NCBI GenBank assembly: GCA_963717845.1
Contig: CAVQXH010000001.1
Location: 1,264,942-1,328,941, forward strand
Direction: 5' to 3'
Length of the DNA: 64,000 nucleotides
Source: an uncultured Actinomycetes bacterium
Lineage (GTDB): Bacteria; Actinomycetota; Thermoleophilia; Gaiellales; JAICJC01
Part shown: piece after piece, positions 5,831 through 46,922 of the stretch
Layout of the letters: every line of letters begins with the position of its first letter
Position numbering within the stretch: the stretch's first letter is position 1
Position numbers and translations under genes: made by a program
Notes under the pieces: generated by a model
The model's input: the letters and a program-made list of their open reading frames with translations, nothing else
What the model was told of the DNA's origin: nothing
The model's database searches: none

Positions 5831-7117
5831 ATGCGAGTCCTCATTGTCGGATCCGGCGGTCGCGAGCACGCGCTGGCGTGGGCGCTCGCGCGCTCGCCGC
5901 TGCTCGGTGAGCTGCACGCCGCCCCGGGCAACCCTGGCATCGGCACCCTCGCCCGCCTGCACGCGGTGCCGGTGAGCGACCTCGAGGGCCTGACCCGGCT
6001 CGCGGCCGAGCTCGACACCGACCTCGTGGTCATCGGCCCCGAGGCGCCGCTGGTGGCCGGCCTGGCCGACCGCATGGCCGCCGCCGGCATCGCCGCGTTC
6101 GGCCCGTCGGCAGCGGCCGCGCAGCTCGAGGGCTCGAAGGCGTTCGCCAAGACCGTGATGGCCACGGCCGGCGTGCCGACGGCGCGCTTCGCGGTGTGCG
6201 ACACCGTCTCTGCGGCTCACGCCGCGATCGCCGAGGCGGACGGGGACGTCGTCGTCAAGGCCGACGGCCTGGCCGCCGGCAAGGGCGTTGTCGTGTGCTC
6301 GTCGACGGCGGAGGCGCACGCGGCGGTGGCGGCGGCGCTCGTGGACGACCGCTTCGGCGTCGCCGGCCACAGGGTGCTGATCGAGGAGCGGCTCGAGGGC
6401 GAGGAGCTCTCGCTGCTCGCGCTGTGCGACGGCGAGCACGTCATGCCGCTGGCGCCGGCTCGGGACTTCAAGCGCGCGGGCGACGACGACTCCGGCCCGA
6501 ACACCGGCGGCATGGGGTCGATCTCGCCGGTGCCGGGGATCGATGCCGACGCGGTCGCGGACATCGTCGCGCAGGTGCACCGGCCGGTCGTGAACGAGCT
6601 CGCCCGCCTCGGCTCGCCCTTCCGCGGCTGCCTGTACGCCGGGCTGATCATGACCGCCGACGGCCCGCGCGTGATCGAGTTCAACGTCCGCTTCGGCGAT
6701 CCCGAGACGCAGGTGATCCTGCCCCGCACCGGCGGCGACCTGCTGGCGCTGCTCGCGCGCGCCGCCGGGAGCAGCCTGGCCGGGTGCGAGGCCGAGCCGG
6801 CCGAGGCCGCCTGCGTGAGCGTCGTCGTGGCGTCGCGCGGATATCCCGACGCACCGGAGCTGGGCGACCCGATCGCCGGCGTCGACGCGGCCGAGGAGAT
6901 CGAGGGAGTGACCATCTTTCATGCCGGCACCGCTCACGGCGAGGCCGGCCTGCAGACCGCGGGAGGCAGAGTGCTGAACGTGACCGCCGTCGGGCCCGAC
7001 TTCGACACCGCCCGCCGGCGCGCCTACGCCGGCGTCGACGCGGTCCGGATCGCCGGCTCCCACCATCGCAGCGACATCGGCCGCGCGGCCGCCGCCGCGG
7101 AGCGTGTGCATGCGTGA
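5831..7117 (+). CDS. purD: Phosphoribosylamine--glycine ligase
   Basis: An internal ATG at 5831 gives [19 protein letters not shown]..., the canonical PurD N-terminus. The ATP-grasp body is colinear. Confidence 0.95.
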
Positions 7118-24999: not shown

Positions 25000-26290
25000 C
25001 GACGCGACGCTGGCGCGCCGGCTGGCGGAGGCCCTGGACGGCCGGGCGCAGGCGACCGGGGAGCTCGAGGCGATCGTGCGCGTCCTCGAGGCGGCGGCGG
25101 CAGAGGCCCGCTTCGGCGTCGCCGCCGATGAGACCGAGCGCGCCCTCGCGGCGGCCCGCCCCCGCCCGCTCCGGGCCAGGCGGCGCTGGCCGGTGGCCGC
25201 GGCCGCGGCGGCGGTCGCCGTGGTCGCGGCGGCGCTGGTGCTGGCCTGGCCCTTCGGTGCGGCGTCGACCAGGGACGTCCAGGCGCAGGCGCTCGCCGCG
25301 CTCGGCGGGCCGGGGTCGGTGCTCGAGGTCGGCGAGCGGATCACGCCCGGCCCGGGCGGAGGGTTCGCCGCGTCGACGCGCACCGGCTGGCTCGACCCCG
25401 CCCGCGGCCGGGCCCTGTGGACGCAGAGCACGGCCGCCGGCACCGTGGTCGATCAGACCCTGGTCGAGCGCGGACGGGTGACCCGCTACGACCCGGCCAC
25501 GCACACCGCCGTCCTGGCGGCGTCGTGCACGGCCCTGGCGACGGGCTGCGCCTCGGCCGTCGACCCGATCGCGGTCTACCGGGCCGCCCTGCTTCGGGCG
25601 GCGGCCACGTCGGCGCACACGGTCACGTTCCATGGCCGCAGCGCCTACCGGTTCTCGCTGCCGGTCACGCGCCTGGCCGACGCCACCCGCGTGGCGCAGG
25701 TCGTCACGATCGACGCCCGCACGCTGCTCCCGGAGCGGATCGTGTGGCAAGCGGGTGGAGGCCGGACGATCGCCGTGATCGACATCCGCTCGGCGACGGT
25801 GATGGGGCGCGACCTCGCGCCGTCCGACGCGTTCTCGCTCGCGCTCCCGCAGCGGACGGCGATCACCCAGCTGGCCGCGTCGGGGCAGCCTGTGCGCCTG
25901 CTCGGCGCGAGCCGCATCAGCGTCGCCCGGGCGCGTGCTCTGCGACCGGCCCCCGACTGGCTCGGGCCGCGCGACGGCCGCTTCCCGCTCGGCCGGGTGA
26001 CGCGGTACCGCTACACGGGCGGGGCCGCCGTGATGCTGCGCTACGGCTCCCTGCGCGTCTGGAGCTACGGAGCGGTCGTGCCGCCGGCGCTGCTTGCCGA
26101 CCTGGCCGTACCCGTGAAGCAGTTCCCCGTCGGTGCGCGCACCGCCCGGCTCTACGCGACCGCCGGCGGCATGTTCGCGGTCGAGGTCGATCGCCCCGGC
26201 GGCACCGTCGTCGTGATCGCGCCGGCGCGCCTGAGCAGCGCCGCGATCAACGCGCTGCCGCGGCTGCGGCCGATGGCAGCAGCAGGTTGA
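24986..26290 (+). CDS. Putative anti-sigma factor (single TM, large extracytoplasmic domain)
   Basis: The gene overlaps the sigma stop. A short cytoplasmic N-terminus precedes the TM WPVAAAAAAVAVVAAALVLAWPF and an extracytoplasmic domain of about 330 aa. Confidence 0.6.
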   Translation: MRRSDDATLARRLAEALDGRAQATGELEAIVRVLEAAAAEARFGVAADETERALAAARPRPLRARRRWPVAAAAAAVAVVAAALVLAWPFGAASTRDVQAQALAALGGPGSVLEVGERITPGPGGGFAASTRTGWLDPARGRALWTQSTAAGTVVDQTLVERGRVTRYDPATHTAVLAASCTALATGCASAVDPIAVYRAALLRAAATSAHTVTFHGRSAYRFSLPVTRLADATRVAQVVTIDARTLLPERIVWQAGGGRTIAVIDIRSATVMGRDLAPSDAFSLALPQRTAITQLAASGQPVRLLGASRISVARARALRPAPDWLGPRDGRFPLGRVTRYRYTGGAAVMLRYGSLRVWSYGAVVPPALLADLAVPVKQFPVGARTARLYATAGGMFAVEVDRPGGTVVVIAPARLSSAAINALPRLRPMAAAG

Positions 26291-27293
26291 GGTCGCCGAA
26301 CTCGTGCCACAGGTAGCCGTGGGTGGCCGCGGCCGCGTAGCAGCGCTCTGTCAGCTCGCGGCCGGCGATCGCGCGCACGAGGTCGAGATGGGTGGCCTCG
26401 GGCGGGTGCCAGCCCGTGAGCAGGCCGTCCACGACGCCGGCGCCGCGCTCCTCGTCGATCACGAGCTCCGTCCAGCCCTGCGCCGCGGCGACCGCGGGTC
26501 CGCCCGCGGCCGCGGTCTCGAGGGCCCTCACGGCGGTCGTGCCCACCGCGATGACGCGCCCGCCGGCGGCGCGCACCGCGTTCACGTGCCGCGCGGTCGG
26601 CTCCGGGACGCTGTAGGGCTCGGGGAAGGGCGGCTCGCCGGTCTCGGGCGATGACACGCCCGTGTGCAGCACGATCGGCGCGAACTCGACGCCGGCCGCG
26701 ACCAGGGCGGTCACGAGCTCGGGCGTGAACGCGCGCCCCGCGCTCGGCATCTCGGCGCTGCCGGGCTGTGTGGCGAACACGGTCTGGTAGTCGGAGATCG
26801 GCCAGTCGGCTCCGGCGTAGGCGTAGCGGATCGGGCGGCCGTGGGCCTCGAGGTGCTCGTGCAGGCCCACCGGCAGGTCGAGCCGCGCCGTCCACAGCCG
26901 CGGGCCGCCCCGCAGCAGGCGCGCGCGGCCGCCGCCGGGGAGCGCCAGCCGCCAGCCGCGCCGGGCGGCCGCGAACGGCAGCGTGCCCGGGCCGGCCGGG
27001 ATGCGCAGCTCCACCGTCCACAGGTGCTCGTCCGGGTCGGCGCCCGGAAGCGGAGTGGACAGGTGCAGCCGCAGCAGCCGGCCTCCGGGCGCGACCGCGT
27101 CGAGCGCCGCCGGGAGCGTCTCCGACGTGTTGACCACGAGCAGGTCGCCCGGTGCGAGCAGCCGCGGCAGATCGCGGAAGACGGCGTGCGTGACGGTGCC
27201 GTCGCCGCGGCCCACGAGCAGGCGCACCAGGTCGCGGGCGACGCCCCGCCGCTCGGGCGGGGCGGTGGCCTCGGCCAGTGCGACGGCGCTCAC
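26247..27293 (-). CDS. queA: QueA-like S-adenosylmethionine:tRNA ribosyltransferase-isomerase family protein
   Basis: GDLLVVNTSETLPA, YQTVFA...GSAEMPSAGRAFT, IVLHTG, VIAVGTTAVRALE and LLTGWHPPEATHL are colinear with QueA motifs, though divergent. Confidence 0.75.
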   Translation of the reverse strand: MSAVALAEATAPPERRGVARDLVRLLVGRGDGTVTHAVFRDLPRLLAPGDLLVVNTSETLPAALDAVAPGGRLLRLHLSTPLPGADPDEHLWTVELRIPAGPGTLPFAAARRGWRLALPGGGRARLLRGGPRLWTARLDLPVGLHEHLEAHGRPIRYAYAGADWPISDYQTVFATQPGSAEMPSAGRAFTPELVTALVAAGVEFAPIVLHTGVSSPETGEPPFPEPYSVPEPTARHVNAVRAAGGRVIAVGTTAVRALETAAAGGPAVAAAQGWTELVIDEERGAGVVDGLLTGWHPPEATHLDLVRAIAGRELTERCYAAAATHGYLWHEFGDLNLLLPSAAAAAAR

Positions 27294-27991
27294 GCCGCTG
27301 CCTCGGATCGGCTCAGCTCGCGTGCGCGGTAGCGCCCCGACGGCAGGTCGCCCTCGATCAGCCGCAGCAGGCCGGGGACGCTCGTCTGCGGCCGCGGCCG
27401 GTCGGAGATGTCCTCGCCGGGGAAGGCCTCCTGGTGCATGCGGGTGCGCATGTCGCCGGGGTCGGCCCAGTACACGCGCAGATGCGGGTGCTCGGCCGCG
27501 AGCACGTTGGACAGCTGCTCGAGCGCGGCCTTCGCCGATCCGTACCCGCCCCAGCCGGGGTAGTTCTCGACGGCTGCGTCGGAGGTGATGTTGAGCACGA
27601 CGCCGCCGTCCGGCGCGAGCGCCGGCAGGGCCAGCTGGATCAGGCCGAGCGGGGCGAGCACGTTGATCCGGTAGACCGCGTCGAGCACCTCGAGCGGGTA
27701 GTCGGCCAGGTCGGGCTGCGGGCTCGGGCCGAGCACCGACGCGTTGTTTGCAAGCAGCCGCAGCCGGCCCATCCGCACCGCCGCTGCCACCAGCTCCTCG
27801 CGGTGGCGGGGATCGGCCACGTCGCCGGCGATCGCCGTCACGGCGGTCTTCTGCGCCAGCGCCTCCCGCGCCTCTGCGAGCGCGTCTGCGCCCCGTGCGT
27901 CGATGACGAGCCCGTAGCCGCGATCGGCCAGCGCCTGCGCCAGCGCGAGCCCGAGGCCGCGCGACGCTCCTGTGATGAGTGCGATATCCAT
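27290..27991 (-). CDS. SDR-family oxidoreductase
   Basis: The NAD(P) motif is MDIALITGASRGLGLALA, and the catalytic region is YGSAKAAL. The stop overlaps the QueA-like start. Confidence 0.88.
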   Translation of the reverse strand: MDIALITGASRGLGLALAQALADRGYGLVIDARGADALAEAREALAQKTAVTAIAGDVADPRHREELVAAAVRMGRLRLLANNASVLGPSPQPDLADYPLEVLDAVYRINVLAPLGLIQLALPALAPDGGVVLNITSDAAVENYPGWGGYGSAKAALEQLSNVLAAEHPHLRVYWADPGDMRTRMHQEAFPGEDISDRPRPQTSVPGLLRLIEGDLPSGRYRARELSRSEAAA

Positions 27992-28072
27992 GCGCCCAGG
28001 CTAGGCCGCCGCGTGCGCCGGCGCCTCGGGCGGGGGTCGCGATCTGGGCGGGACGTTGGTCCTAGACCGTCG

Positions 28073-28104
28073 CGGGAGGGGGCGCCCGCAGGCGCCCCCT
28101 CCCG
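28073..28104 (-). terminator. Perfect 14-bp GC hairpin (CGGGAGGGGGCGCC-cgca-GGCGCCCCCTCCCG) 14 nt downstream of the Cys-rich gene stop
   Basis: Read directly. There is no U-tract, as is common for high-GC terminator-like hairpins. Confidence 0.6.
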
Positions 28105-28117
28105 AGGTCGGCCCGGC

Positions 28118-29800
28118 CTACGTCGAGCAGGTCGGGTTGTGCCGCATCGGCCCCTCGAGGTTGCCGAAGAAGTACGCCGAGGGCTGCCCGTACTGATGCG
28201 TGCCGCCGAAGGTGTTGCCGTTGCGCATCTGCCCGAACTCCCACACACACTGGCCGTGCACCCTGGCCTGTGTCCAGAACGGGTAGAAGTTCCCCGGCGC
28301 CGCGGACGGAGGCACCGCGCACCCGACGCCGGTCGGCGCGCACGACGCCTCGCTGGCCGGGGCGTTGGTCTGGAACTGGATCGTCTTGTACGCATGCCCG
28401 CGCGTTCGCGGCTCCTGCTGCAGGAAGGGCGACGGATAGCGGTCGGGCTTCGTGTTGTCGGGCCAGTTCGGCCAGTACGACGTGCCGTCGTAGTCGAGGT
28501 CGCCGTTCTGGGCGATCGTCTGGATGCACCCCGCCACCTCGTTCGGAGGCGCGTGGCCACCGTGCGTGAAGCCGTTCGGCCAGCAGGGCGCGTCGGAGAC
28601 CTCCGGGTTCGGGGAGCCGTCCGGCGGGGCCGAGTTCTCGTACGGCCCGGTGCAGTTCTGCCAGATGGTGTCGGTGAAGTTCCCGACCGGGAACGGCATC
28701 GGGTCGGTCACGGACGTGCACGGCTCGAAGTGGCCGATCTCGAACTGGGTCGAGATGTTGGTCTCGAGCGCCGCCCACGGGATGATGTTCTGCGGCCTGG
28801 CCGTGTCGTACTCGGGCTGGTAGTTGAACGGGCGCCCGCTGCAGTCGGCGATCGACGTCTGCATGAAGCCGTTTCGCGCCGAGGCGATCATGAACCCGCT
28901 CTGCCCGGTCGTGAGGTCGTGGATGCTGGTCTCGAGCGCGTGCCCTCCACCACGCAGCTTCGCGTCGAAGATGTGGATCACGAGCCGGTCACCGGGATTC
29001 ATCAGCAGCGTCTCGCCGTTCGGCGTCGCCGTGTTGCCGTTTGCGAGCTGCGGGCTGGGCGGCCCGGTGGGCACGCCGTCTCTCTGGATGAACGCGAAGT
29101 TGGTCGGCTCCTCGCAGTTGGGGTTGCAGTTCACGAATCCGAGCTCGCACTCGAGGTCGTTGATGTGCAGCGACGCGCACCAGTGCGTGTTGTCGCACGA
29201 GATCGAGTCGACGAACGGCGCGAACCCGGGCGGGTAGAACTGCATCTCGAGGAACGAGCTGCCGCCGCCGCCCTGGTCGAACGTGGGCGGATGGTGCGGG
29301 GCGTTGGAGTCGCTGCGCGGCTTGCACGGGTTGAGCGGGTAGGACTCGGCGTTGCACAGCGCCATCGAGAACCACGGCGCGATCGAGAGCTCGAACCAGT
29401 GCGTGACGTCGGTGCCCGGATGGGCCACGGTCGGAAGCGCGGCGGGATCGAAGGGCAGCCGCTCCTTCCAGGTGATGTCGTTGCCGGAGCCGTGCCGCTT
29501 GGACAGGAACCGGATGATGGGCTCGTCATGGCCGATGTACTTGCCGTTGTCCTCGAACCGGGTCGGCTTGCCGTCATACAGCGAGCGCGGGTCGCTGCAG
29601 ACGAGCGAGGCGCGCAGCGCGTGCTGGCTCTTGCTCTGGCCGTTGCAATCGAGCATGCCGCTCGCCCCCGGCTTCACGCCGGTGCTGGCGCCGGCAGACG
29701 CTGGGGCGGCGGCGGTCATCGCACACGCGGCCAGGAGCGCGATCACCCACGGTCCGAGCCGCCTACGGCTGCGGGCCTCCTTGGACAGGGACCATGACAT
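28118..29800 (-). CDS. Secreted cysteine-rich protein of unknown function (about 560 aa, 18 Cys in the mature part)
   Basis: An internal ATG at 29800 gives MSWSLSKEARSRRRLGPWVIALLAACAMTAAAPASA, a signal peptide with an RRR motif. GC3 is high throughout. I could not place motifs such as YIGHDEP, FLEMQFYPPG and THWCASLHINDLECELGFVNCNPNCEEP in any family. Confidence 0.75.
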   Translation of the reverse strand: MSWSLSKEARSRRRLGPWVIALLAACAMTAAAPASAGASTGVKPGASGMLDCNGQSKSQHALRASLVCSDPRSLYDGKPTRFEDNGKYIGHDEPIIRFLSKRHGSGNDITWKERLPFDPAALPTVAHPGTDVTHWFELSIAPWFSMALCNAESYPLNPCKPRSDSNAPHHPPTFDQGGGGSSFLEMQFYPPGFAPFVDSISCDNTHWCASLHINDLECELGFVNCNPNCEEPTNFAFIQRDGVPTGPPSPQLANGNTATPNGETLLMNPGDRLVIHIFDAKLRGGGHALETSIHDLTTGQSGFMIASARNGFMQTSIADCSGRPFNYQPEYDTARPQNIIPWAALETNISTQFEIGHFEPCTSVTDPMPFPVGNFTDTIWQNCTGPYENSAPPDGSPNPEVSDAPCWPNGFTHGGHAPPNEVAGCIQTIAQNGDLDYDGTSYWPNWPDNTKPDRYPSPFLQQEPRTRGHAYKTIQFQTNAPASEASCAPTGVGCAVPPSAAPGNFYPFWTQARVHGQCVWEFGQMRNGNTFGGTHQYGQPSAYFFGNLEGPMRHNPTCST

Positions 29801-29840
29801 AGCTGCCCACCCCTTCGGGAGACGAATATGGACGCAGGTA

Positions 29841-29869
29841 GAAATAGTCCAGTTGGGTCTCTGTGTCAA
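29841..29869 (-). promoter_or_regulatory. Sigma70-like promoter for the Cys-rich gene: TTGACA-17 nt-TATTTC (minus strand)
   Basis: The reverse complement of 29864-29869 is TTGACA, and the reverse complement of 29841-29846 is TATTTC. It lies in a locally AT-richer gap, leaving a leader of about 40 nt with RBS gaaggggtgg. Confidence 0.5.
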
Positions 29870-29891
29870 TGACTACGAACACGCACCGTTT

Positions 29892-30728
29892 TCAGCCGGA
29901 TCGCTTGAGGCGGCCGTGCTGTTTGGCATACCGCTCGCCGCGCGAGAACACGTACAGTCCGAGCGGGATCGCGATGACCCCGATCACGATCAGCGGCCAG
30001 ATGTCGTCCCAGATCGCTGCGACGCCCGCGCCGTCGAGGATCGCCCGCCGCGCGCCCTCGAGCGTGTAGGTGGCCGGCGACACGACCGAGATCCACTGCA
30101 TCCACTGCGGCAGCACGCTGACCGGGTAGTACACCCCCGACACGACGAGCAGCAGGCCCTGCGCGATGAACCCGAGCTGCGTGCCCTTCTCGGGCGAGAT
30201 CAGGGGCAGCACCGCGGTCATCATGCCGATCCCGACGAACGAGAGCGACGAGATCGCGAGCACGAGCGTCGCCGCGGCGAAGTCGGGGTTGCCGAAGTGG
30301 ACGTCGAGGAAGCTCGCCACCACGACGAACAGGAGCACCGTCCGCAGCACGCCGTAGAAGACGGCGAACGCGCCCATCCCGAGCAGGTGCGCGGGCCGCG
30401 ACAGCGGGGCCATGAACGTGTACTCGATCGTGCCCTCCCACCGCTCCCAGGCGACCGTCTCGGTCTCGATCTCGAAGATGAGCCCGAGGTATGACCACAC
30501 CACCGCGCCGATCAGGAGGACGATGGTCTCGCGGTTCACGTCCAGGCGGTAGCCGGCCGCCTCCACGCCCTTCGCGATGAAGACGATCGTGAGCGTGTTC
30601 GCGACGGTGTACAGGAACCAGGCCAGCTCCCACCATGCGAACCGGCGGATCAGGTAGGTGTTGCGCTCGACGATGCCGGCGAAGCCGATCACCTCGCGCC
30701 GCACCGCCACGGATGCCTGCCGCATCAT
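29892..30728 (-). CDS. ABC-2 type exporter permease
   Basis: 278 aa with 6 TM segments and an ABC-2 layout. The start overlaps the ATPase stop. Confidence 0.85.
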   Translation of the reverse strand: MMRQASVAVRREVIGFAGIVERNTYLIRRFAWWELAWFLYTVANTLTIVFIAKGVEAAGYRLDVNRETIVLLIGAVVWSYLGLIFEIETETVAWERWEGTIEYTFMAPLSRPAHLLGMGAFAVFYGVLRTVLLFVVVASFLDVHFGNPDFAAATLVLAISSLSFVGIGMMTAVLPLISPEKGTQLGFIAQGLLLVVSGVYYPVSVLPQWMQWISVVSPATYTLEGARRAILDGAGVAAIWDDIWPLIVIGVIAIPLGLYVFSRGERYAKQHGRLKRSG

Positions 30729-31543
30729 GCGGTCACCTCCGACTCGGTCTCGGCCTCGTCCTCGAAGCTGCGCCCGGTCGCCATCATGAAGGCGTCCTCG
30801 AGCGTCGCGGCGCCGTAGCGGTCACGGATCTCGCCGGGCGTGTCCAGGCAGAGCAGGTTGCCTCCGTGCAGGATCCCCACCCGGTCGGCGAGCGCCTCGG
30901 CCTCGGCCATGTCGTGGGTGCACAGGAGGATCGTGCAGTCGTGCTGGCGGCGCAGGTCGCGCACGAGCTCCTGCACCTCGAGCTTGGAGCGGGGGTCGAG
31001 GCCGGTGGTCGGCTCGTCGAGGAGGAGCAGCACCGGCGAGGTCAGAAGCGCCCGGGCGAGCGCGATCTTCTGCTGCATCCCGCGGGAGAGGTCCTCCATC
31101 GGCTCGCCGCGGCGGTCGGGCGGAAAGCCCACGCGGCGCAGGATCGCCGGGATGGCCGTGCGCGTCTGCCGCGGGGTGAGGCCGTAGAAGCGCGCCGAGT
31201 AGCTCAGGTTCTCGGCCGGGGACATGCGCTTGAAGAACGACGCCTCCACCGACACCCGGTTCACCAGCCGCTGCACCGCGCGCGGGTGCGCGCCGACGTC
31301 GATGCCGAACACCTCGGCCGTGCCGCCGTCGTGCAGGAGCAGCGTCGAGAGCACGCGCACGAGCGTCGACTTGCCGGAGCCGTTCTGGCCCAGGATGGCG
31401 ACGCACTCGCCGCGCGCGAGGGTGAAGGTCACGCCCTGCAGGGCCGCCACACGGCGGCGGCGGACGCGGCCACGGCGGCGGCCGTCGCGGCGGATGAACT
31501 CCTTGCGCAGATCGTGGACTTCGACGGCGGGATGGGTGGACAC
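30725..31543 (-). CDS. ABC transporter ATP-binding protein
   Basis: Walker A GQNGSGKST, signature LSRGMQQK, Walker B LLLLDEPTTGLD and the H-loop CTHD are all present. Confidence 0.92.
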   Translation of the reverse strand: MSTHPAVEVHDLRKEFIRRDGRRRGRVRRRRVAALQGVTFTLARGECVAILGQNGSGKSTLVRVLSTLLLHDGGTAEVFGIDVGAHPRAVQRLVNRVSVEASFFKRMSPAENLSYSARFYGLTPRQTRTAIPAILRRVGFPPDRRGEPMEDLSRGMQQKIALARALLTSPVLLLLDEPTTGLDPRSKLEVQELVRDLRRQHDCTILLCTHDMAEAEALADRVGILHGGNLLCLDTPGEIRDRYGAATLEDAFMMATGRSFEDEAETESEVTA

Positions 31544-31709
31544 GCGGACGCTCCAGGGACGACGGCGATCGGCTCCGGCTCCGCGCAGGGACGCACCGAG
31601 GTGCGTGCGGGCGGAGCGAGACTGATGGGGCGGCGGGCGGCGCGGGCCGGGCGGAAAACCCGGCGCAGCCGGTGACTCTAGCAGACGTCCGCAGCGACCT
31701 CGATCCCGC

Positions 31710-32417
31710 TTGGGCGGCCGGTTCCCGGGCGGTCCCGCCGATGCCGTTGGCTATGGTTGCCCGGTGGAATCGGTCGCAGGCACAAACGGCGACCGGCCCG
31801 TGGCGGTGCCCGCCCGGCCGGCCGCCCTCGCGCTGAAACGCTCGTTTGACGTCTGCGCCGCCGCCGCGGGGCTCGTGGTGCTCTCGCCGGTGCTCGCGGC
31901 GCTCGCGGCGGTGATCCTCGTCGAGGACGGGATGCCGGTGCTCTTCCGCCAGGAGCGGGCCGGGCAGGACGGCGAGCCGTTCACCATCTTCAAGTTCCGC
32001 ACGATGATCCGCGAGGCCCATGCCCATGGCGACGGGCTCGCCGTCAACGAGGGCGACGACCGCATCCTGCGCAGCGGCGACTTCTATCGCCGCTACGGCC
32101 TCGACGAGCTGCCGCAGCTCTGGAACGTCCTGCGCGGCGAGATGTCGATCATCGGCCCGCGGCCGACGCTGATGGATCAGGTGCAGCGCTACAACCCGCG
32201 CCAGCGGCTGCGCCTGGCGATGCGCCCCGGGGTGACCGGCTGGTCGCAGATCCACGGCCGCACGTCGATCCCGTGGTCGCGCCGGATCGAGCTCGACGTG
32301 TGGTACGTCGAGCACTGGTCGCTGCGGCTCGACGCGCGCATCCTGTGGCGGACGCTGCACCAGATGACGCGGCCGGCCGAGACCTACAAGGGCACGACGG
32401 GCGGCTGGGACCTGTGA
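31710..32417 (+). CDS. Undecaprenyl-phosphate sugar phosphotransferase (small bacterial sugar transferase family); start uncertain
   Basis: KRSFDV...VLSPVL...FRQER.G..G..F.IFKFRTM...DELPQLWNVLRGEMSIIGPRP are hallmark blocks. Confidence 0.88.
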   Translation: MGGRFPGGPADAVGYGCPVESVAGTNGDRPVAVPARPAALALKRSFDVCAAAAGLVVLSPVLAALAAVILVEDGMPVLFRQERAGQDGEPFTIFKFRTMIREAHAHGDGLAVNEGDDRILRSGDFYRRYGLDELPQLWNVLRGEMSIIGPRPTLMDQVQRYNPRQRLRLAMRPGVTGWSQIHGRTSIPWSRRIELDVWYVEHWSLRLDARILWRTLHQMTRPAETYKGTTGGWDL

Positions 32418-33430
32418 GCAAGCGGTCGGTGCTGCTCACGTGCGCCGGGCAGCGCGTGGACGTCGTGCGGGCCTTCCGCGAGGCGCTCGACGGCCTCGGC
32501 TGGGACGGCGACGTGGTCGCGGTCGACGCGAACCCGCTCTCGCCGGCGCTGATGAAGGCCGACCGCGGGGTCGTGGTGCCGGTCGCGAGCAGCCCCGACT
32601 ACGTGCCGGCGCTGGCCGACCTGGTGACCGCCCACGGCGTGCGCGCGGTGCTGCCGCTGGCCGACCTCGACAACGTCGAGCTCGTCGCCGGCCGTGCGCT
32701 CCTCGAGGCCGCCGGGGCGGCGCTGCTTCTGCCCGACCTGGCTGTGGCCGAGGCCATGTTCGACAAGTACCGCTGCCACGAGGCGCTGCTCGCCGCCGGC
32801 CTGCCGTCGCCCGACACGTGGATCCCCGAGGAGCTGCCGCCGCGGCCGCCGCTGCCGCTGCTCGTGAAGCGGCGGTGGGGGTATGCGTCGCGCGACATCT
32901 ACCGCTGCGAGAGCCTGGCCGAGGTGCGCTTCTTCGTCGCCTACGCGGGCGTGCCGGTGATCGTGCAGCGGTTCTGTCCTGGCGAGCAGTTCTCGATCGA
33001 CGTCCTCTGCGATCTGCAGGGCACGGCGGTGAACGTCATCCCGCGCACGATGATCGAGTCGAAGGGCGGCGAGTCGATCAAGGGCATGACCATCGCCGAT
33101 CCGCGCCTGATCGAGCTCGGGCGCACGGTCGCCGAGGGCCTGCGGCTGGTCGGTCCGGCGACCGTCCAGTGCTTCGACGAGCCGGAGGGCCTGCCGGTCA
33201 CCGACATCAACTGCCGCTTCGGCGGGGCCTTCCCGCTCCCGCTCGCGGCGGGCTCGCGCTATCCCGAGCTGGTGCTGCGGATCGCCTGCGGCGAGCGCAT
33301 CGAGCCGCACGTGGGCAGGTTCACGCCCGGGGTGACGATGACCCGCTACTACGACACCGTGATCCTGCCGCAGGGCGACCGCGCCGCTGCCGCCGAGGCG
33401 CTCGGCGGCGCCCCGGCGGCCGCAGACTAG
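32414..33430 (+). CDS. ATP-grasp enzyme (carbamoyl-phosphate-synthase-L-like ATP-binding fold)
   Basis: The GTGA start overlaps the sugar-transferase stop. An ATP-grasp layout follows (..DKYRCHEALLAAGLPSP..LLVKRRWGYASRDIY..VIVQRF.PGEQFSIDV..DINCRFGG). Confidence 0.75.
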   Translation: MSKRSVLLTCAGQRVDVVRAFREALDGLGWDGDVVAVDANPLSPALMKADRGVVVPVASSPDYVPALADLVTAHGVRAVLPLADLDNVELVAGRALLEAAGAALLLPDLAVAEAMFDKYRCHEALLAAGLPSPDTWIPEELPPRPPLPLLVKRRWGYASRDIYRCESLAEVRFFVAYAGVPVIVQRFCPGEQFSIDVLCDLQGTAVNVIPRTMIESKGGESIKGMTIADPRLIELGRTVAEGLRLVGPATVQCFDEPEGLPVTDINCRFGGAFPLPLAAGSRYPELVLRIACGERIEPHVGRFTPGVTMTRYYDTVILPQGDRAAAAEALGGAPAAAD

Positions 33431-33682: not shown

Positions 33683-35902
33683 TCAGCCCACCACGGGCTC
33701 GCGATCGAAGCGGCGATAGAGCGGCTCGACCGCGTCCGCCGGCACCGCCGGGCTGAACAGGAACCCCTGGCCGAGCGTGCACCCCTCGCGCTTCAGGAAC
33801 TCGTACTGGTCGGGCGTCTCGATGCCCTCGGCCAGCGCCTCGGCGCCGATGTTGCGGGCGAGCTGGATGATCGTGGTCGCGATCGCGTTGGCGTGCGGGC
33901 TCCCGGGGATGTCGCGCACGAACGCGCGATCGATCTTGAGCGTCGAGACAGGCATCTCGGTGAGGCGGCTGAGCGACGAATGGCCCGTGCCGAAGTCGTC
34001 GATCGCGAGCTTGATGCCGCGCCGGTGCAGATCGTGCAGGATGGCCTGAGTGCGGTCGGGCTCGGTCATCGCGCTCGACTCGCTCACCTCGACGACGATC
34101 TGGCTGGGGTCGAGGCCGCTCGCGCGGATCGTGTGCAGCAACCGCTCGGCCGCCTCCGGGTGCCAGTGGGCGATGGGCAGGTTGACGGCCGCGCGGATGT
34201 TCATCTCGCCTGCAAGCCACGGCCGTGACACCCGGCACACCTCGTCGACGACCCACTCCGAGATGGCGCCGATCAGATCGGTGCGCTCGGCCAGGGGGAT
34301 GAAGGCCGAGGGCGCCAGCAGCCCGTCGTCGGGGTGGTTCCAGCGGATGAGCGCCTCGACGCCCACCATGTGCATGTCCTCGAGGCGCAGGATCGGCTGG
34401 TAGTGGAGCACGAACTCGCCGCGCTCGAGTGCGAGCTGCATCTGTGCCGTCAGCGACACCTGGGCTGCGCCGTTTGCCGCTGCCGGCAGCGAGCGCCGGG
34501 CGAGCTCCTTCGACCGGTACATGGCCGCGTCGGCGCGGCGCAGGAGCTCGTCGCGGCCGGTGGCGTCGTCGGGGTAGAGCGCGATGCCGACGCTGCCGCC
34601 CGCCGCGATCGTGGCGCCGTCGATCGCGGCCGGCGCGGCCAGGGCCTGCTCGACGTGCTCGGCGATCGTCTGGGCGATGGCCCGCGGGCCCGGCGACGCG
34701 TCCGTCGGCAGGTCGGCGACCAGGACGAGGAACTCGTCGCCGCCGTGGCGGGCGACCAGATCGGTGGCCCGCGTCGCCCGCTCGAGCCGCCGCGCGACCT
34801 GGCGCAGCAGCTGGTCGCCCGCCTGGTGCCCGTGCGTGTCGTTGGTGAGCTTGAAGTCGTCCAGGTCGACGTACAGGACGGCCACGCCGCGCCCGTGCCG
34901 CTGGGCGCGCGCGAGCGCCAGGTCGAGGTGCTCGGCGAACATGAGCCGGTTCGGCAGGCCGGTCAGGTCGTCGTGGTAGGCGAGGTAGGCCACGCGCTGC
35001 TCGGCCAGCTTGCGGGCGGTGATGTCGCGGCCGATCTCGGCCGCGCCGATCACGTGGCCGGCCGCGTCGACGATGGGCGAGACGGTCAGCGCCACCCGCA
35101 CCTCGACCCCGTCCTTGCGCACCCGCACCGTCTCCAGGTTCTCGACCGGCTCTCCCCGCCGGATCAGCGCCAGCAGCGCCGGCGAGTCGGCCGGGCGGCC
35201 GCGCGGCTCGACGAGCGAGATGCGGCGGCCGACCGCCTCGGTGGCGGAGTGGCCGTACAGGCGCTCGGCGCCGCGGTTCCACGATTCGATGACCCCGTCG
35301 AGGGTCTGCGACACGATGGCGTCCTCGGACGACTGGACGATCGCGGCCAGGTCGTAGAGCGCCCGCTGGGACCGGCGCCGGTCGCTCTGGTCGCGCACCT
35401 GGAGCAGCCGCAGGCGGGTGGCGACGCCGGCCAGCGGCGCCGACGACACCTCGGCCGAGAAGGTCGTTCCGTCGTCGCGCCTGGCCGTGACCTCGTAGCG
35501 GCCGTCCCGCTCCCACACCCGCGCGGGCGCGTCGGCCTGCATGGGTGCGAGCAGCCCGTCCTCCAGGGTGGCGCCGACCGTGTCGTCGCGCCGCAGACCG
35601 AGCATGCGCTCGGCCGCCGAGTTGCACTCGACCAGCGTCCCGCGCTCGTCCACGACGAGCACGGCGTCCGGCGTCGACGCCACGATCGCGTGGGCGAGGG
35701 CGTCGTCGCGGCGGCGGCGGCGGCCGATCACGGCCCTGGTCGAGACGGCGCCCGCGAGGGCTGCCAGCCACAGCGCCGCGGGGGCGACGCGCCAGTACCA
35801 GGCGGTGCCCGCCCCGGCCAGGAGCCACCAGCTCGCGGCGGCGACGGCGCCGGCCGCCCACAGACCGAAGCCCGCACCCCGATACCGCCCTACCCGGCTC
35901 AC
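33683..35902 (-). CDS. Membrane-anchored PAS-PAS-GGDEF-EAL c-di-GMP signalling protein
   Basis: 739 aa. N-terminal TM segments precede two PAS modules, a GGDEF domain (RHGGDEFLVLV) and an EAL domain (VEALIRW...DDFGTGHSSL). Confidence 0.92.
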   Translation of the reverse strand: MSRVGRYRGAGFGLWAAGAVAAASWWLLAGAGTAWYWRVAPAALWLAALAGAVSTRAVIGRRRRRDDALAHAIVASTPDAVLVVDERGTLVECNSAAERMLGLRRDDTVGATLEDGLLAPMQADAPARVWERDGRYEVTARRDDGTTFSAEVSSAPLAGVATRLRLLQVRDQSDRRRSQRALYDLAAIVQSSEDAIVSQTLDGVIESWNRGAERLYGHSATEAVGRRISLVEPRGRPADSPALLALIRRGEPVENLETVRVRKDGVEVRVALTVSPIVDAAGHVIGAAEIGRDITARKLAEQRVAYLAYHDDLTGLPNRLMFAEHLDLALARAQRHGRGVAVLYVDLDDFKLTNDTHGHQAGDQLLRQVARRLERATRATDLVARHGGDEFLVLVADLPTDASPGPRAIAQTIAEHVEQALAAPAAIDGATIAAGGSVGIALYPDDATGRDELLRRADAAMYRSKELARRSLPAAANGAAQVSLTAQMQLALERGEFVLHYQPILRLEDMHMVGVEALIRWNHPDDGLLAPSAFIPLAERTDLIGAISEWVVDEVCRVSRPWLAGEMNIRAAVNLPIAHWHPEAAERLLHTIRASGLDPSQIVVEVSESSAMTEPDRTQAILHDLHRRGIKLAIDDFGTGHSSLSRLTEMPVSTLKIDRAFVRDIPGSPHANAIATTIIQLARNIGAEALAEGIETPDQYEFLKREGCTLGQGFLFSPAVPADAVEPLYRRFDREPVVG

Positions 35903-42544: not shown

Positions 42545-44269
42545 ATGACCCTCATTCCCGCGCAGGGGATCGCGCAGATCCTCTTCTACGTCATCGTGCT
42601 GCTGGCGGTGACGCCGCTCCTGGGCTCCTACATGGCCCGGGTGTACGAGGGCGAGGACGTCCTGCTCGCCCGCTGGTTCGGCGTTGCGGAGCGCGGCTTC
42701 TACCGCCTGCTGCGGACATCGCCCGAGGACGAGCAGGACTGGAAGGGCTACGGCACGAGCGTGATCGTGTTCAGCCTGCTCTTCCTGATCCCGCTGTACG
42801 TGCTCCTGCGTGTGCAGGGACACCTGCCGCTCAATCCTGACCACCTCCCGAGCGTCAACGCCGGCGTCGCCGCGAACACCGCCTCGAGCTTCGTCACGAA
42901 CACGAACTGGCAGTACTACGGCGGCGAGTACACCATGAGCTACCTGAGCCAGATGGCCGGCCTCGCGGTGCAGAACTTCATCTCGGCCGCCGTCGGCATG
43001 GCCGTGCTGGCCGCGATGATCCGCGGCTTCGCCCGCCGCGAGACCTCCAAGCTCGGCAACTTCTGGGTCGATCTCTACCGCACGACCGCCTACATCCTGC
43101 TGCCGATCTGCATCGTCACGGCGGCCTTCTTCATCTGGCAGGGCGTCCCCGACACGTTCAGCGGCCACGCGGTCGCGCACACCGTCCAGGGCCACACGCA
43201 GAGCATCGCCCGCGGGCCGGTGGCGTCCCAGATCGCGATCAAGCAGCTGGGCACGAACGGCGGCGGCTTCTACAACTCGAACTCGGCCGTGCCGTTCGAG
43301 AACCCGACCGGGTTCACGAACTTCGTCTCGATGCTGTTCCTGCTGATCATCGGATCGGCAGAGGTGTTCATGTTCGGGAAGATGGTGCGGGCGACCCGGC
43401 AGGGGTGGTCGATCCTCGCGGTCATGTTCATCCTGATGATCGCGGGCGTCGTGATCGCCGCCCCCGCCGAGCAGCACGCATCGCCGGTGCTGCGCCAGTC
43501 GGGCGTCAACATCACGGCGTCGGCCAATTCGCCCGGCGGCAACATGGAGGGCAAGGAGATCCGCTGGGGGATCGCCAACAGCGCTCTTTGGGCCGACGCG
43601 ACGACCGACGCCTCAAACGGCTCGGTGAACGCGAGCCACGACTCGATGACGGCCCTCGGCGGCGCGGTGCCGCTGACCAACATCTTCATCGGCGAGGTGA
43701 TCTTCGGCGGTGTCGGCTCGGGCCTCTACGGCATGCTCATGCTGGTCATCATCGCCGTCTTCGTCGGCGGCCTGATGGTCGGGCGCACGCCCGAGTACCT
43801 GGGCAAGAAGATCGAGGCCCGGGAGATGAAGCTGGCCGTGATCGGCTCGATCTGGGTGCCGCTCGTCGTGCTCGTCCTGACGGCCGTCGCGATGTCGACG
43901 CACGCGGGCAAGCTCTCGATCTTCAACGCCGGCCCGCACGGCTTCACCGAGGCGTTCTACGCCTACACGTCGCAGACCAACAACAACGGCAGCGCCTTCG
44001 CCGGCTACGGGGCGCTGCACTTCTCGACCATGCTCGGCGCATTCGCGATGCTGGTGGGGCGGTTCGTGCCGCTCCTGGCGGCGCTCGCGATCGGCGGCTC
44101 GGTGGCGCTCAAGAAGACCGCCCCCGCGTCGGCCGGGACGATGCGCACCGACGGGCCAACGTTCGTGGTGCTCCTGACCGGCGTCGTCATCCTGCTGCCC
44201 GCCCTCACCATCCTGCCCGCGATCGTGCTGGGCCCGGTGGTCGAGGCACTCACAACGAAGCTCTTCTAG
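42545..44269 (+). CDS. kdpA: K+-transporting ATPase subunit A
   Basis: 574 aa, with TNTNWQ.Y.GE, QLGTNGGGF.N.NSA.PFEN and NNGSAFAG. Confidence 0.95.
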   Translation: MTLIPAQGIAQILFYVIVLLAVTPLLGSYMARVYEGEDVLLARWFGVAERGFYRLLRTSPEDEQDWKGYGTSVIVFSLLFLIPLYVLLRVQGHLPLNPDHLPSVNAGVAANTASSFVTNTNWQYYGGEYTMSYLSQMAGLAVQNFISAAVGMAVLAAMIRGFARRETSKLGNFWVDLYRTTAYILLPICIVTAAFFIWQGVPDTFSGHAVAHTVQGHTQSIARGPVASQIAIKQLGTNGGGFYNSNSAVPFENPTGFTNFVSMLFLLIIGSAEVFMFGKMVRATRQGWSILAVMFILMIAGVVIAAPAEQHASPVLRQSGVNITASANSPGGNMEGKEIRWGIANSALWADATTDASNGSVNASHDSMTALGGAVPLTNIFIGEVIFGGVGSGLYGMLMLVIIAVFVGGLMVGRTPEYLGKKIEAREMKLAVIGSIWVPLVVLVLTAVAMSTHAGKLSIFNAGPHGFTEAFYAYTSQTNNNGSAFAGYGALHFSTMLGAFAMLVGRFVPLLAALAIGGSVALKKTAPASAGTMRTDGPTFVVLLTGVVILLPALTILPAIVLGPVVEALTTKLF

Positions 44270-44286
44270 AGAGGGGCGACATCACC

Positions 44287-44865
44287 ATGCGCAAGGACAT
44301 CATCCGCTCGGCGATCGTGATCGTCGCGAGCACCGTCGTGCTCGGGTTGATCTACCCCGCGGTGATGGTGCTGTTCGGCCAGGTCTTCTTCTCGAGCCAG
44401 GCCAACGGCAGCCTCATCACCCGCAACGGCAAGACCGTGGGCTCGAAGCTCGCCGCGCAGGCGTTCAACGGCCCGCGCTACTTCCACGAGCGCCCGTCGG
44501 CGGTCGCCTATAACGCCGCCGGCACGAGCTTCTCCAACCTCGGCCCGAACGCCAAGGCGCTGCGGACGCTCGTGAAGACCCGGATCCGGAAGATCATGGC
44601 GCTCGAGGGGCCGTACAACCCCGGTCTGACCGTCCACGACATTCCGGTCGACGCCGTTACGGCCTCGGCATCGGGCATCGACCCCGAGATCTCGAAGGCG
44701 TACGCCTACCTGCAGGCGCCGCGGATCGCGGCGGTGCGGCACCTGCCGCTCGCGACCGTCCGCAGCCTGATCACCTCACACGTCACCGGCCGCTCCCTGG
44801 GCTTCCTCGGGGAGCCGGGCGTGAACGTGCTCGAGCTCAACCTCGCACTCGACCAGGAGCACTGA
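44287..44865 (+). CDS. kdpC: K+-transporting ATPase subunit C
   Basis: The ATG at 44287 gives an N-terminal TM, then GSLI..NGK.VGS.L.AQ.F....[19 protein letters not shown] and [10 protein letters not shown]. Confidence 0.9.
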
Positions 44866-46922
44866 TGGCCCGGCAAGAAGCCAAGCTGTTCACGCGGGAG
44901 ATCGTCACCCGCGCGACGATCGACTCGATCAAGAAGCTCGATCCCCGGATCCAGCTGCGAAATCCGGTCATGTTCGTGGTCGAGGTGGGCTCGGCGATCA
45001 CCACCGCCACCTTCTTCATCGACCTGATCGGCGGCGGCGGCCAGGCGCTCTGGTTCACCGGCGACATCGCCCTCTGGCTGTGGCTCACGGTGATCTTCGC
45101 GAACTTCGCCGAGGCGATCGCCGAGGGCCGCGGCAAGGCCCAGGCCGACACGCTGCGGGCGATGCGCACGACGACGCTGGCCACGAGGCGGCGCGACGAC
45201 GGCGGCACCGAGCAGGTGCCGGCCCCCGAGCTGCGGCGCGGCGACATCGTGGTGGTCGAGGCCGGCGAGGCGATCCCCGCAGACGGAGACGTCGTCGAGG
45301 GCATCGGCTCGGTGGACGAGTCGGCCATCACCGGCGAGTCGGCGCCGGTGATCCGCGAGTCGGGCGGCGACCGCTCGGCCGTCACCGGCGGCACCCGGCT
45401 GCTCTCCGACCGCCTGGTCGTCCAGGTCACGCAGGAGCCGGGCAAGTCCTTCCTCGACCGCATGATCGCGCTGGTCGAGGGCGCGGCCCGGCGCAAGACG
45501 CCCAACGAGATCGCGCTCAACATCCTGCTCGCCGGCCTCACCCTGATCTTCCTGGTCGCCGTCGTGACGCTGCAGCCGTTCGCCCTGTATGCCAAGAGCG
45601 GCGTCTCGACGACCGTGCTGATCTGCCTGCTCGTGGCGTTGATCCCGACCACGATCGGCGCGCTGCTCTCCTGCATCGGCATCGCCGGCATGGACCGGCT
45701 CGTGCGCCGCAACGTGCTCGCCCTGTCGGGCCGCGCGGTCGAGGCCTCGGGCGACATCGACGTGCTCCTGCTCGACAAGACGGGCACGATCACGCTCGGC
45801 AACCGCGAGGCCGTCGAGTTCATCCCCGCCCCGGGGGTGGAGCCGCACGACCTGGCCGAGGCCGCCCAGCTCTCGTCGCTGGCCGACGAGACGCCCGAGG
45901 GCCGCTCGATCGTCGTCCTCGCCAAGCAGTTCGGCGTGCGCGAGCACGAGCTCTCGACCATCGAGGCCGAGTTCGTCCCCTTCTCGGCCACCACCCGCAT
46001 GAGCGGTGTGAACATGAACGGCACGGTCATCCGCAAGGGCGCGACCGACGCGGTGCGCCACTTCGTCGAGGAGAGCGGCGGCCGCGTGCCGGCCGAGGTC
46101 GACGCGGCCGTCGATCGCATCGCCCGGGACGGCGGCACCCCGCTCGTCGTCGCCCGCGACAACTGGACGCTTGGCGTCATCTACCTGAAGGACATCGTCA
46201 AGGGCGGCATCAAGGAGCGCTTCGACGAGCTGCGCAAGATGGGCATCCGCACGGTGATGATCACCGGGGACAACCCCGTCACGGCCGCATTCATCGCCAA
46301 CGAGTCCGGTGTCGACGACTTCCTGGCCGAGGCGACGCCCGAGAACAAGATGGCCCTGATCAAGGAGGAGCAGGCCAAGGGCCGCATGGTCGCCATGACC
46401 GGCGACGGCACGAACGACGCGCCCGCGCTCGCCCAGGCCGACGTCGGCGTCGCCATGAACACCGGCACGCAGGCCGCGAAGGAGGCCGGCAACATGGTCG
46501 ACCTCGACTCCAACCCGACCAAGCTGATCGAGATCGTCGAGGTGGGCAAGCAGCTGCTGATCACGCGCGGCGCCCTGACCACGTTCTCGATCGCAAACGA
46601 CGTGGCCAAGTACTTCGCGATCCTGCCGGCCATGTTCGCGTTCACGTATGCGGCCCATCCCGGCGATCACGGGCCGCTCTGGACGATCAACGTCATGAAG
46701 CTCGGGACGCCGCTCTCGGCGGTCACCTCGGCCATCATCTTCAACGCCCTGGTCATCCCGATCCTGATCCCGCTCTCGCTGCGCGGCGTCCGCTACCGCG
46801 CGATCGGCGCCACCGCCCTGCTGCGCCGGAATCTGCTCATCTACGGCCTGGGCGGCATCATCGCGCCCTTCATCGGCATCAAGCTGATCGACCTCGTGGT
46901 GCACAACGTCCTCGGGGCGTAG
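44865..46922 (+). CDS. kdpB: K+-transporting P-type ATPase subunit B
   Basis: 685 aa, with the phosphorylation motif DKTGTIT, TGDNP and [18 protein letters not shown]. Confidence 0.95.

Follow-up and report, generated by a model that had tools for sequence, protein, structure and literature searches.

The described family that comes closest in sequence to the gene studied here is that of the G1 glutamic peptidases (eqolisins; PF01828 Peptidase_A4; scytalidoglutamic peptidase, 1S2B/2IFW). These secreted, mainly fungal enzymes have about 206 mature residues, a concanavalin-like two-sheet beta-sandwich that forms a half-pipe cleft and, in most clades, a C47-C127 disulfide (the C-loop). Their hallmarks are a catalytic Gln53/Glu136 dyad (SCP-B numbering) and a basic prosegment of about 55 amino acids (aa) (PMC6154417). 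Other described proteins are comparable in architecture. The polysaccharide lyase (PL) families PL28 (ulvan lyase NLR48) and PL14 are beta-jelly-roll cleft enzymes working on extracellular polymers, and legume lectins and concanavalin A share the fold class. Neprosin (7ZVA) and HC7 (8PN5), further jelly-roll peptidases of the glutamic class, catalyze by means of carboxylates on a beta-sandwich; neprosin is made as a zymogen whose pro-domain is all-beta (PMC9343461). Here, we analyze a gene for a secreted protein of 560 aa with 18 cysteines in its mature part. It lies on the minus strand of a 64,000-nucleotide stretch of DNA (the window, which is the whole stretch analyzed) from an uncultured Actinomycetes bacterium (assembly GCA_963717845.1, contig CAVQXH010000001.1).

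We propose that the product is a Sec-exported hydrolase, stabilized by disulfides and probably by Ca2+, whose elaborated concanavalin-like sandwich is distantly related to the glutamic peptidases and carries a re-invented Glu/Gln/His site. This is a tentative proposal, which we hold to be possible rather than probable. The protein and its homologs form a new family within a known fold. The analysis shows the gene, the extent and conservation of the family, the signal segment, the covariation of Cys pairs, the fold class, a weak G1 profile signal, a set of conserved and co-lost residues, and the stand-alone layout; catalysis, the part played by each residue, the nature of the substrate, the binding of Ca2+, and the site of signal cleavage are inferred. 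The original prediction, made from the DNA alone, had described the product as an extracellular enzyme or a glycan- or metal-binding protein. This remains a fair description because of the concanavalin-like fold and the conserved His/Glu/Gln cluster.

A large family without a name

Sequence searches of Pfam, NCBIfam and the PDB with the single protein gave no match, nor did a PDB search with the 96-sequence family profile, and the core domain was unmatched when 43 diverse members were scanned singly against Pfam at E ≤ 10. The source annotation of every member is "hypothetical protein," and the family was not found described in literature searches. The view that the product belongs to no recognized family thus held up, and we likewise found no confident hidden Markov model (HMM) or structural match to a characterized family that would remove its novelty.

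The taxonomic distribution of homologs, which the original prediction had suggested determining, proved to be that of a large family. There were 2,624 matches among the scored candidates, the top 120 being full-length at ≥59% identity. Clustering at 50% identity left 1,254 representatives (E ≤ 1e-3), and species-representative genomes gave at least 595 matches. The best 80 of these genome matches are all metagenome-assembled genomes (MAGs), the closest from a Gaiellales MAG at 96% identity. They fall in Gaiellales, Solirubrobacterales, Streptosporangiaceae, Dormibacterota, Ktedonobacterales, Limnocylindria, and other Chloroflexota. Members come mostly from uncultured soil Actinomycetota, Chloroflexota, and Dormibacterota, many of their MAGs being labeled Microflora Danica (MFD) or soil-MAG (SMAG), and about 60% identity is kept across three phyla.

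Some relatives are much longer (870 to 1,100 aa; P0128-P0149, P0215, and others). They match mainly residues 30-400 of the window protein and begin with this domain, behind which come Ig-like, DUF11, FG-GAP, NHL, TIG, CARDB or FIMAH repeats, which is an adhesin-like or surface-display architecture. No recognized carbohydrate-binding module was found in roughly 50 long relatives.

Several soil MAGs hold two to three copies on different contigs or at different positions (L018, L029 and L046 in MFD00125.bin.1.5; L058 with L060; L040 with L070), which suggests paralog expansion. The window itself contains no paralog of the gene.

A concanavalin-like fold

The gene and the two parts of its predicted product are as follows.

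28118..29800, minus strand: coding sequence of the 560-aa secreted protein; G+C content at third codon positions (GC3) 0.94, full-length homologs at about 58-95% identity, stop codon at 28118-28120
28601..29680, minus strand: predicted core beta-sandwich, residues about 41-400; concanavalin-like jelly roll, the portion common to the long multidomain relatives
28121..28600, minus strand: C-terminal region, residues 401-560; packs on the core in the model, with three conserved Cys pairs and a predicted local distance difference test score (pLDDT) mostly >90; more variable in distant relatives

The AlphaFold2 (AF2) model built on the 96-sequence alignment, which included representatives at 29-55% identity, is an almost all-beta globule with a pLDDT of 92.1 and a predicted template-modeling score (pTM) of 0.90. 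With the 26 close homologs alone, the pLDDT was 37. The original prediction had read the cysteine spacing as a series of disulfide-rich modules; the model instead shows one compact beta-sandwich globule. Foldseek comparison of the model with the PDB gave the following matches, with template-modeling (TM) scores normalized to the target.

PL28 ulvan lyase, 6d2c: E 2.7e-4, probability 0.93, TM 0.30
HC7 peptidase, 8pn5: E 3.1e-3, probability 0.35, TM 0.24
Putative two-domain sugar hydrolase, 4qhw: E 1.3e-2, probability 0.80, TM 0.30
Neprosin, 7zva: E 1.9e-2, probability 0.13, TM 0.19
PL14 alginate lyase, 5gmt: E 4.2e-2, probability 0.28, TM 0.27

Further neighbors were legume lectins (probability ≤0.21), LamG, and pentraxin domains, and the matches in the viral BFVD library were concanavalin-like too. 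On the strength of the model, we assign the protein to the concanavalin-like jelly-roll class; these comparisons establish the fold class and nothing finer. Each individual neighbor differs considerably. The best match, PL28, superposes with a TM score of only 0.17 when normalized to the query (root-mean-square deviation [rmsd] 14.5 Å), and PL28 and PL14 share 9-10% identity with the window protein, which is about twice their size. Neprosin and HC7 are among the top matches, but their probabilities are 0.13-0.35 and their rmsd 18-23 Å, and nothing comparable to the neprosin pro-domain is evident in our protein.

A specific but weak signal to the glutamic peptidases

We compared the family profile by hhalign with a G1 profile (a 52-sequence PF01828 alignment built from database proteins), with single sequences, and with reversed controls. 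The scytalidoglutamic peptidase sequence was an exact match to PDB 1S2B, and the control sequences, too, were confirmed by comparison with PDB entries.

Full family profile against the G1 profile: probability 17%, P = 1.5e-3
Residues 41-400 against the G1 profile: probability 31%, P = 5e-4
Residues 255-400 against the G1 profile: probability 44%, P = 2.3e-4
Family against a single G1 sequence: score 26-28, P = 1.4-3.7e-3
Family against glycoside hydrolase (GH) family GH11 xylanase (BCX): score 9-16, P = 0.2-0.7
Family against GH12 Cel12A: score 17-20, P = 0.06-0.08
Family against concanavalin A: score 12-15, P about 0.3
Family against reversed sequences or the reversed G1 profile: score 10-20, P = 0.08-0.85

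Among the four families tested (G1, GH11, GH12, and concanavalin A), G1 alone scored above the controls. GH11 and GH12, members of clan GH-C with two catalytic Glu on the concave sheet, stayed at the level of the reversed sequences, and the family had no Pfam match to them. The profile comparison therefore points to a signal that is specific to G1 but weak. Up to 186 columns align collinearly, with W143 paired to G1 W6, and C202 and C320, each ≥91% conserved and invariant among close homologs, aligned with the G1 C47-C127 disulfide. The alignment also pairs GD271, DLTTGQ with NLTTGQ, and PWAAL with VPFAxF, such that a GD...LxxLTTGQ hairpin is common to both. A pairing of YIGHDE with G1 WVGIDG made by eye was discarded, as hhalign instead places the G1 N-terminus from about residue 136 onward. 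The differences from G1 are also clear: our protein has 560 aa and probably about nine disulfides, the family has conserved His residues that G1 lacks, and it occurs in soil Actinomycetota, Chloroflexota, and Dormibacterota instead of mainly in fungi.

Conserved residues and a candidate active site

Conservation was assessed among 52 distant representatives at 29-55% identity, in which 80 positions are ≥85% conserved. The polar ones include Y88, H91, D92, E93, D164, N166, E185, Q187, Y189, N226, E231, N234, D271, D279, D295, N310, E354, H357, D403, D438, and Y442. Lys and Arg are absent from these 80 positions. Four motifs stand out.

29519..29533, minus strand: GHDEP, residues 90-94; H91 and E93 are putative active-site residues or metal ligands, invariant in alignment A1 and 87-92% conserved in the 52 distant members
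29234..29248, minus strand: E185-M-Q187-F-Y189 on beta-strand 181-189; putative cleft stripe, 94-96% conserved in distant members
28730..28741, minus strand: E354-I-G-H357, second putative active-site element; E354 and H357 94% conserved, G356 invariant
28484..28501, minus strand: DLDYDG, residues 434-439, putative Ca2+ loop of the DxDxDG type; D434, D436, D438 and G439 invariant in alignment A1, D438 and G439 ≥90% conserved family-wide

Since E185, Q187, and Y189 alternate along strand 181-189, they would lie on one face of the sheet. The Ca2+ role of DLDYDG is suggested by the type of motif.

We then followed six residues (H91, E93, E185, Q187, E354, and H357) across 281 sequences with Fisher tests. 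All six are substituted in P0243, five in P0129, four in P0227, and two each in P0192, P0166, and P0259. The substitutions are associated for H91-E93 (P = 4e-9), E185-Q187 (P = 4e-6), and E93-E185 (P = 1e-5), while controls against other variable positions were mostly nonsignificant. In P0259, P0129, and P0243, both H91 and H357 are changed, and P0129 and P0243 have lost E354 along with H357. This pattern suggests that the six residues make up a single functional site, which a few paralogs have lost by decay.

Separately, the three long relatives P0207, P0222, and P0230 (alignment A2) combine D92A with substitutions of N226 and N234. This hints at a second coupled cluster, perhaps a metal or ligand site, though the three members may be one subfamily.

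Export and disulfide bonding

The N-terminus of the product carries two features that bear on its localization.

29693..29800, minus strand: predicted signal peptide, residues 1-36, MSWSLSKEARSRRRLGPWVIALLAACAMTAAAPASA followed by G; basic segment containing RRR, then a hydrophobic segment at 18-32, then ASA|G
29723-29734, minus strand: lipobox-like L-A-A-C26, residues 23-26; inside the signal peptide and followed by an Ala/Pro/Ser/Gly-rich linker

ASA|G is a likely signal peptidase I site. The hydrophobic 12-mer of the signal peptide scores 2.4, 85 of 89 family members have such a segment at the N-terminus, and residues 1-16 and 28-35 have a pLDDT <50 in the AF2 model. The expected signal peptide with RRR was thus found, with its basic, hydrophobic, and AxA segments. 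Reading the RRR as a Tat signal fared less well. The N-terminal SRRRLGP fits the Tat motif S/T-R-R-x-F-L-K in part, but RR occurs in only 32 of the 89 members and a loose RRx-hydrophobic-hydrophobic motif in 16. Tat export was therefore rejected as a family trait and Sec taken as the conserved route, which also suits a protein forming many disulfides. Lipoprotein anchoring was rejected as a family trait as well, with a context resembling the lipobox [LVI][ASTVI][GAS]C in only 19 of 190 members and the Cys often midway through the hydrophobic region. Judging by its own N-terminus, the window copy could be a lipoprotein instead of freely secreted.

Of the 19 Cys of the product, C26 falls within the signal peptide; the other 18, the number originally counted, belong to the mature protein. 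All 18 are invariant among 26 close homologs. In distant members, the pairs 52/68, 218/225, 361/383, and 487/494 are gained or lost together (Jaccard 0.6-0.92), as expected of disulfide partners. The predicted export and disulfide bonding are thus supported by sequence patterns across the family.

Proposed function and its alternatives

In the mechanism we propose, the concave sheet would hold an extracellular polymer in a cleft lined with H91/E93 of GHDEP, E354/H357, and the E185-x-Q187-x-Y189 stripe. The bond would be hydrolyzed by general acid/base catalysis of the carboxylate or carboxylate-amide type, perhaps with the help of a metal bound to the two His, in the style of the glutamic peptidases and clan-type jelly-roll glycosidases. 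About nine disulfides would stabilize the exported enzyme. We lean toward a peptide or glycopeptide over a pure glycan as the substrate because G1 is the nearest relative detectable by sequence; relative to G1, the family would have rebuilt its active site. An enzyme-like constraint, seen in about 60% identity over three phyla and in the 80 conserved positions, supports this reading.

Several observations weigh against this proposal. The hhalign probability for G1 stays below 50%. G1 Q53 falls at about I213 and E136 either at F325 or at P329/E330, depending on the hhalign run; these positions are nonconserved or nonequivalent, although this part of the alignment is of low confidence and a shifted equivalent may exist. 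PF01828 is unmatched in the window protein (E ≤ 1) and in the 43 members (E ≤ 10). A basic prosegment of ~55 aa would not fit, as the conserved fold starts at residue 41, about five residues past the predicted cleavage. Because of the unmatched PF01828, the unrecovered dyad, and the missing room for a prosegment, the sequence comparison leads us to regard the relationship to G1 as distant and the protein as no member of it. On the structural side, no Foldseek match exceeds a TM score of 0.30, G1 structures lie outside the top 50, and the top-scoring neighbors are glycan-active proteins instead of peptidases. The co-loss statistics come from about seven divergent sequences, uncorrected for phylogeny; some of the changes at 354/357 are truncation gaps, and the degenerate sequences are also the most divergent. 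Finally, it is by conservation and co-loss that the six residues are grouped into one putative site.

The structural neighbors raise the question of a glycan-active enzyme, that is, a glycoside hydrolase using two carboxylates (e.g. E185 and E354) or a polysaccharide lyase, acting on extracellular or cell-wall polysaccharide. Matches such as PL28, 4qhw, PL14, and the legume lectins would fit this, as would the richness in aromatics, N, and T and the many conserved carboxylates. Uronate lyases (PL28/PL14/PL7) are expected to have conserved basic residues plus Tyr/His to neutralize and deprotonate the uronate; the lack of a conserved Lys or Arg in the family therefore argues against lyase chemistry. 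The long relatives carry no recognized carbohydrate-binding module, no sugar transporter or CAZyme neighborhood is conserved, GH11 and GH12 remain at the hhalign background, and all TM scores are ≤0.30. We consider a glycan-active enzyme unlikely, though it deserves attention.

The same fold would also suit a noncatalytic lectin or adhesin-type binding domain, in which the conserved residues would bind Ca2+/Mn2+ and a ligand in the manner of legume lectins. The occurrence of legume lectins, LamG, and pentraxin among the structural neighbors is consistent with this, and so are the architecture of the long relatives, whose Ig-like, DUF11 or FG-GAP stalks carry the domain at their N-terminal tip, and the acidic loops (DxDxDG and the conserved D164/N166 loop), which suggest divalent-cation, possibly Ca2+, sites. 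However, some 60% identity over phyla with 80 near-invariant positions is unusually strict for a lectin, and much stronger conservation than that of legume lectins and concanavalin A, which hhalign leaves at background. Block decay of the Glu/Gln/His set in a few paralogs is also more typical of a catalytic site, and a binding domain seems improbable to us. Still less probable is a metal-dependent, possibly redox enzyme with its metal on an HxE...H-type triad (H91/E93/H357), as in jelly-roll or cupin metalloenzymes. The jelly-roll fold, the 87-94% conservation of H91-x-E93 and H357, and the joint changes of the two His speak for it, but no cupin or 2-oxoglutarate oxygenase is among the Foldseek matches and there is no conserved basic residue for cosubstrate binding.

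A probable stand-alone transcription unit

The elements flanking the gene are the following.

29864..29869, minus strand: -35-like hexamer TTGACA, a perfect match; conserved in two close relatives, L004 and L006
29838..29857, minus strand: conserved block CCCAACTGGACTATTTCTAC, containing the -10-like TATTTC (29841-29846), 17 nt after the -35
29806..29816, minus strand: Shine-Dalgarno (SD)-like GAAGGGGTGGG, 5 nt upstream of the ATG; conserved in L004 and L006
28073..28104, minus strand: terminator-like hairpin with a 14-bp perfect G+C stem and a 4-nt loop, 13 nt past the stop codon, without a U-tract

The gene had been predicted to have a near-consensus promoter. The TTGACA-17-TATTTC element is present and conserved, with a perfect -35, but "near-consensus" overstates the match because TATTTC agrees with TATAAT at three of six positions and lacks the final T. 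A generic consensus scanner called neither a promoter nor a terminator at the gene, owing to this -10 and to the missing U-tract of the hairpin. The blocks CATTGACACA and CCCAACTGGACTATTTCTAC are identical in the window, L004 (96% relative), and L006 (88% relative), and in L006 the DNA flanking these promoter-like blocks has diverged on both sides. Family-wide, TTGACA is the top enriched upstream hexamer (17 of 80 loci against 1.1 expected) and an SD-like motif occurs in 65 of 80. K-mer enrichment over the 80 loci gave no shared upstream regulator motif beyond TTGACA and SD-like k-mers, and there was no riboswitch or leader RNA match in Rfam at E ≤ 1 over 26000-33000.

The predicted perfect 14-bp hairpin is indeed there, with a fold energy of -58.8 kcal/mol for the 86-nt context (z = -4.9 against shuffles). 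The L006 hairpin, at about 6570-6610, shows a compensatory A:U to U:A change (GGGAGG/CCTCCC to GGTGG/CCACC). Downstream of the stop codon, 61 of 81 family loci have a hairpin of at least -25 kcal/mol strength, compared with 0 of 83 control windows inside the gene. Upstream gaps have a median of 228 nt and are ≥60 nt in 76 of 80 loci. Because of the conserved promoter-like element, the upstream gaps, and the 3' hairpins across the family, the gene is very probably monocistronic, as proposed, and the stand-alone layout is a family-wide trait.

Gene model and composition

The longest listed open reading frame (ORF) for the gene, 28118-29869, opens at a TTG that is itself the beginning of the TTGACA hexamer; the real start is therefore the ATG at 29800, the position at which a 95% identical homolog (P0001) begins. 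An overlapping plus-strand ORF of 839 aa (27278-29797) is an antisense, high-GC artifact, as the GC3 signal and all homologs are on the minus-strand frame. The ATG, the GC3, and the homologs bear out a minus-strand gene with the predicted product of ~560 aa.

The product had been described as rich in N, F, Y, W, and T and poor in A and R, which holds against 12 neighboring proteins:

N: 6.7% in the product, 1.7% in neighbors
F: 5.7% in the product, 2.7% in neighbors
T: 7.3% in the product, 4.6% in neighbors
W: 2.1% in the product, 1.3% in neighbors
Y: 2.7% in the product, 2.0% in neighbors
A: 7.4% in the product, 14.8% in neighbors
R: 3.6% in the product, 8.5% in neighbors
C: 3.4% in the product, 1.0% in neighbors

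This unusual composition accounts for the low G+C of the gene (67.6% against 72.9% for the window), with a first-codon-position G+C (GC1) of 0.57. GC3 is 0.93-0.94, similar to the neighboring genes. The other low-GC1 ORFs of the window encode an amino-acid permease, KdpA, and KdpB; the Kdp genes have a low GC1 because they encode membrane proteins, not because they are related to the gene.

Genomic neighborhood

The gene lies in a block of QueA-like, SDR, the gene itself, ABC-2 permease, ABC ATPase, and Bac_transf sugar transferase (window 26247-32417). This block is syntenic only in L004 and L006, which are Gaiellales-type MAGs at 88-96% identity, and is absent around L005 and L010 (71-72% identity). 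The gene and its neighbors diverge to the same degree (96% vs. 92-98% identity in L004; 89% vs. 87-93% in L006), which indicates vertical inheritance within this clade. Recent horizontal transfer of the window copy was rejected because of this even divergence and the neighbor-like GC3. On three homolog contigs, the neighbors are unrelated. Clustering of flanking ORFs across 83 loci gave no conserved neighbor, the commonest being a generic SDR (14 of 83); an ABC ATPase occurs in 9 of 83. The suggestion that the adjoining ABC-2 exporter and sugar transferase reveal the function is therefore not sustained, as the synteny is limited to close Gaiellales relatives.

The window has further features. 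A PylC-like ATP-grasp ORF (32273-33430, plus strand) overlaps the 3' end of the Bac_transf gene (31710-32417, plus strand) by about 145 nt, and its true start is probably further downstream. A PAS-GGDEF-EAL signaling protein is encoded at 33683-35902 (minus strand), and the potassium-transport ATPase subunit genes kdpA and kdpB at 42545-44269 and 44865-46922 (both plus strand).

Significance

The turnover of carbon and nitrogen in soil relies on extracellular enzymes of largely uncultured bacteria. The family described here is widespread and highly conserved, without a name, a Pfam or NCBIfam model, or a solved relative. Should its members prove to be enzymes, they would make up a new catalytic family on a known fold; if it is a lectin or structural protein, it would be an ordinary domain of unknown function. 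With considerable doubt, we advance the conjecture that the window protein founds a new catalytic family, one that would be new to MEROPS or CAZy and would represent a disulfide-stapled bacterial branch of the glutamic-peptidase/jelly-roll lineage in which the His/Glu/Gln site was re-invented. The six candidate residues (H91, E93, E185, Q187, E354, and H357) are targets for mutation, and the confident model is a starting point. If the conjecture is true, the family could contribute to the turnover of extracellular polymers in soil.

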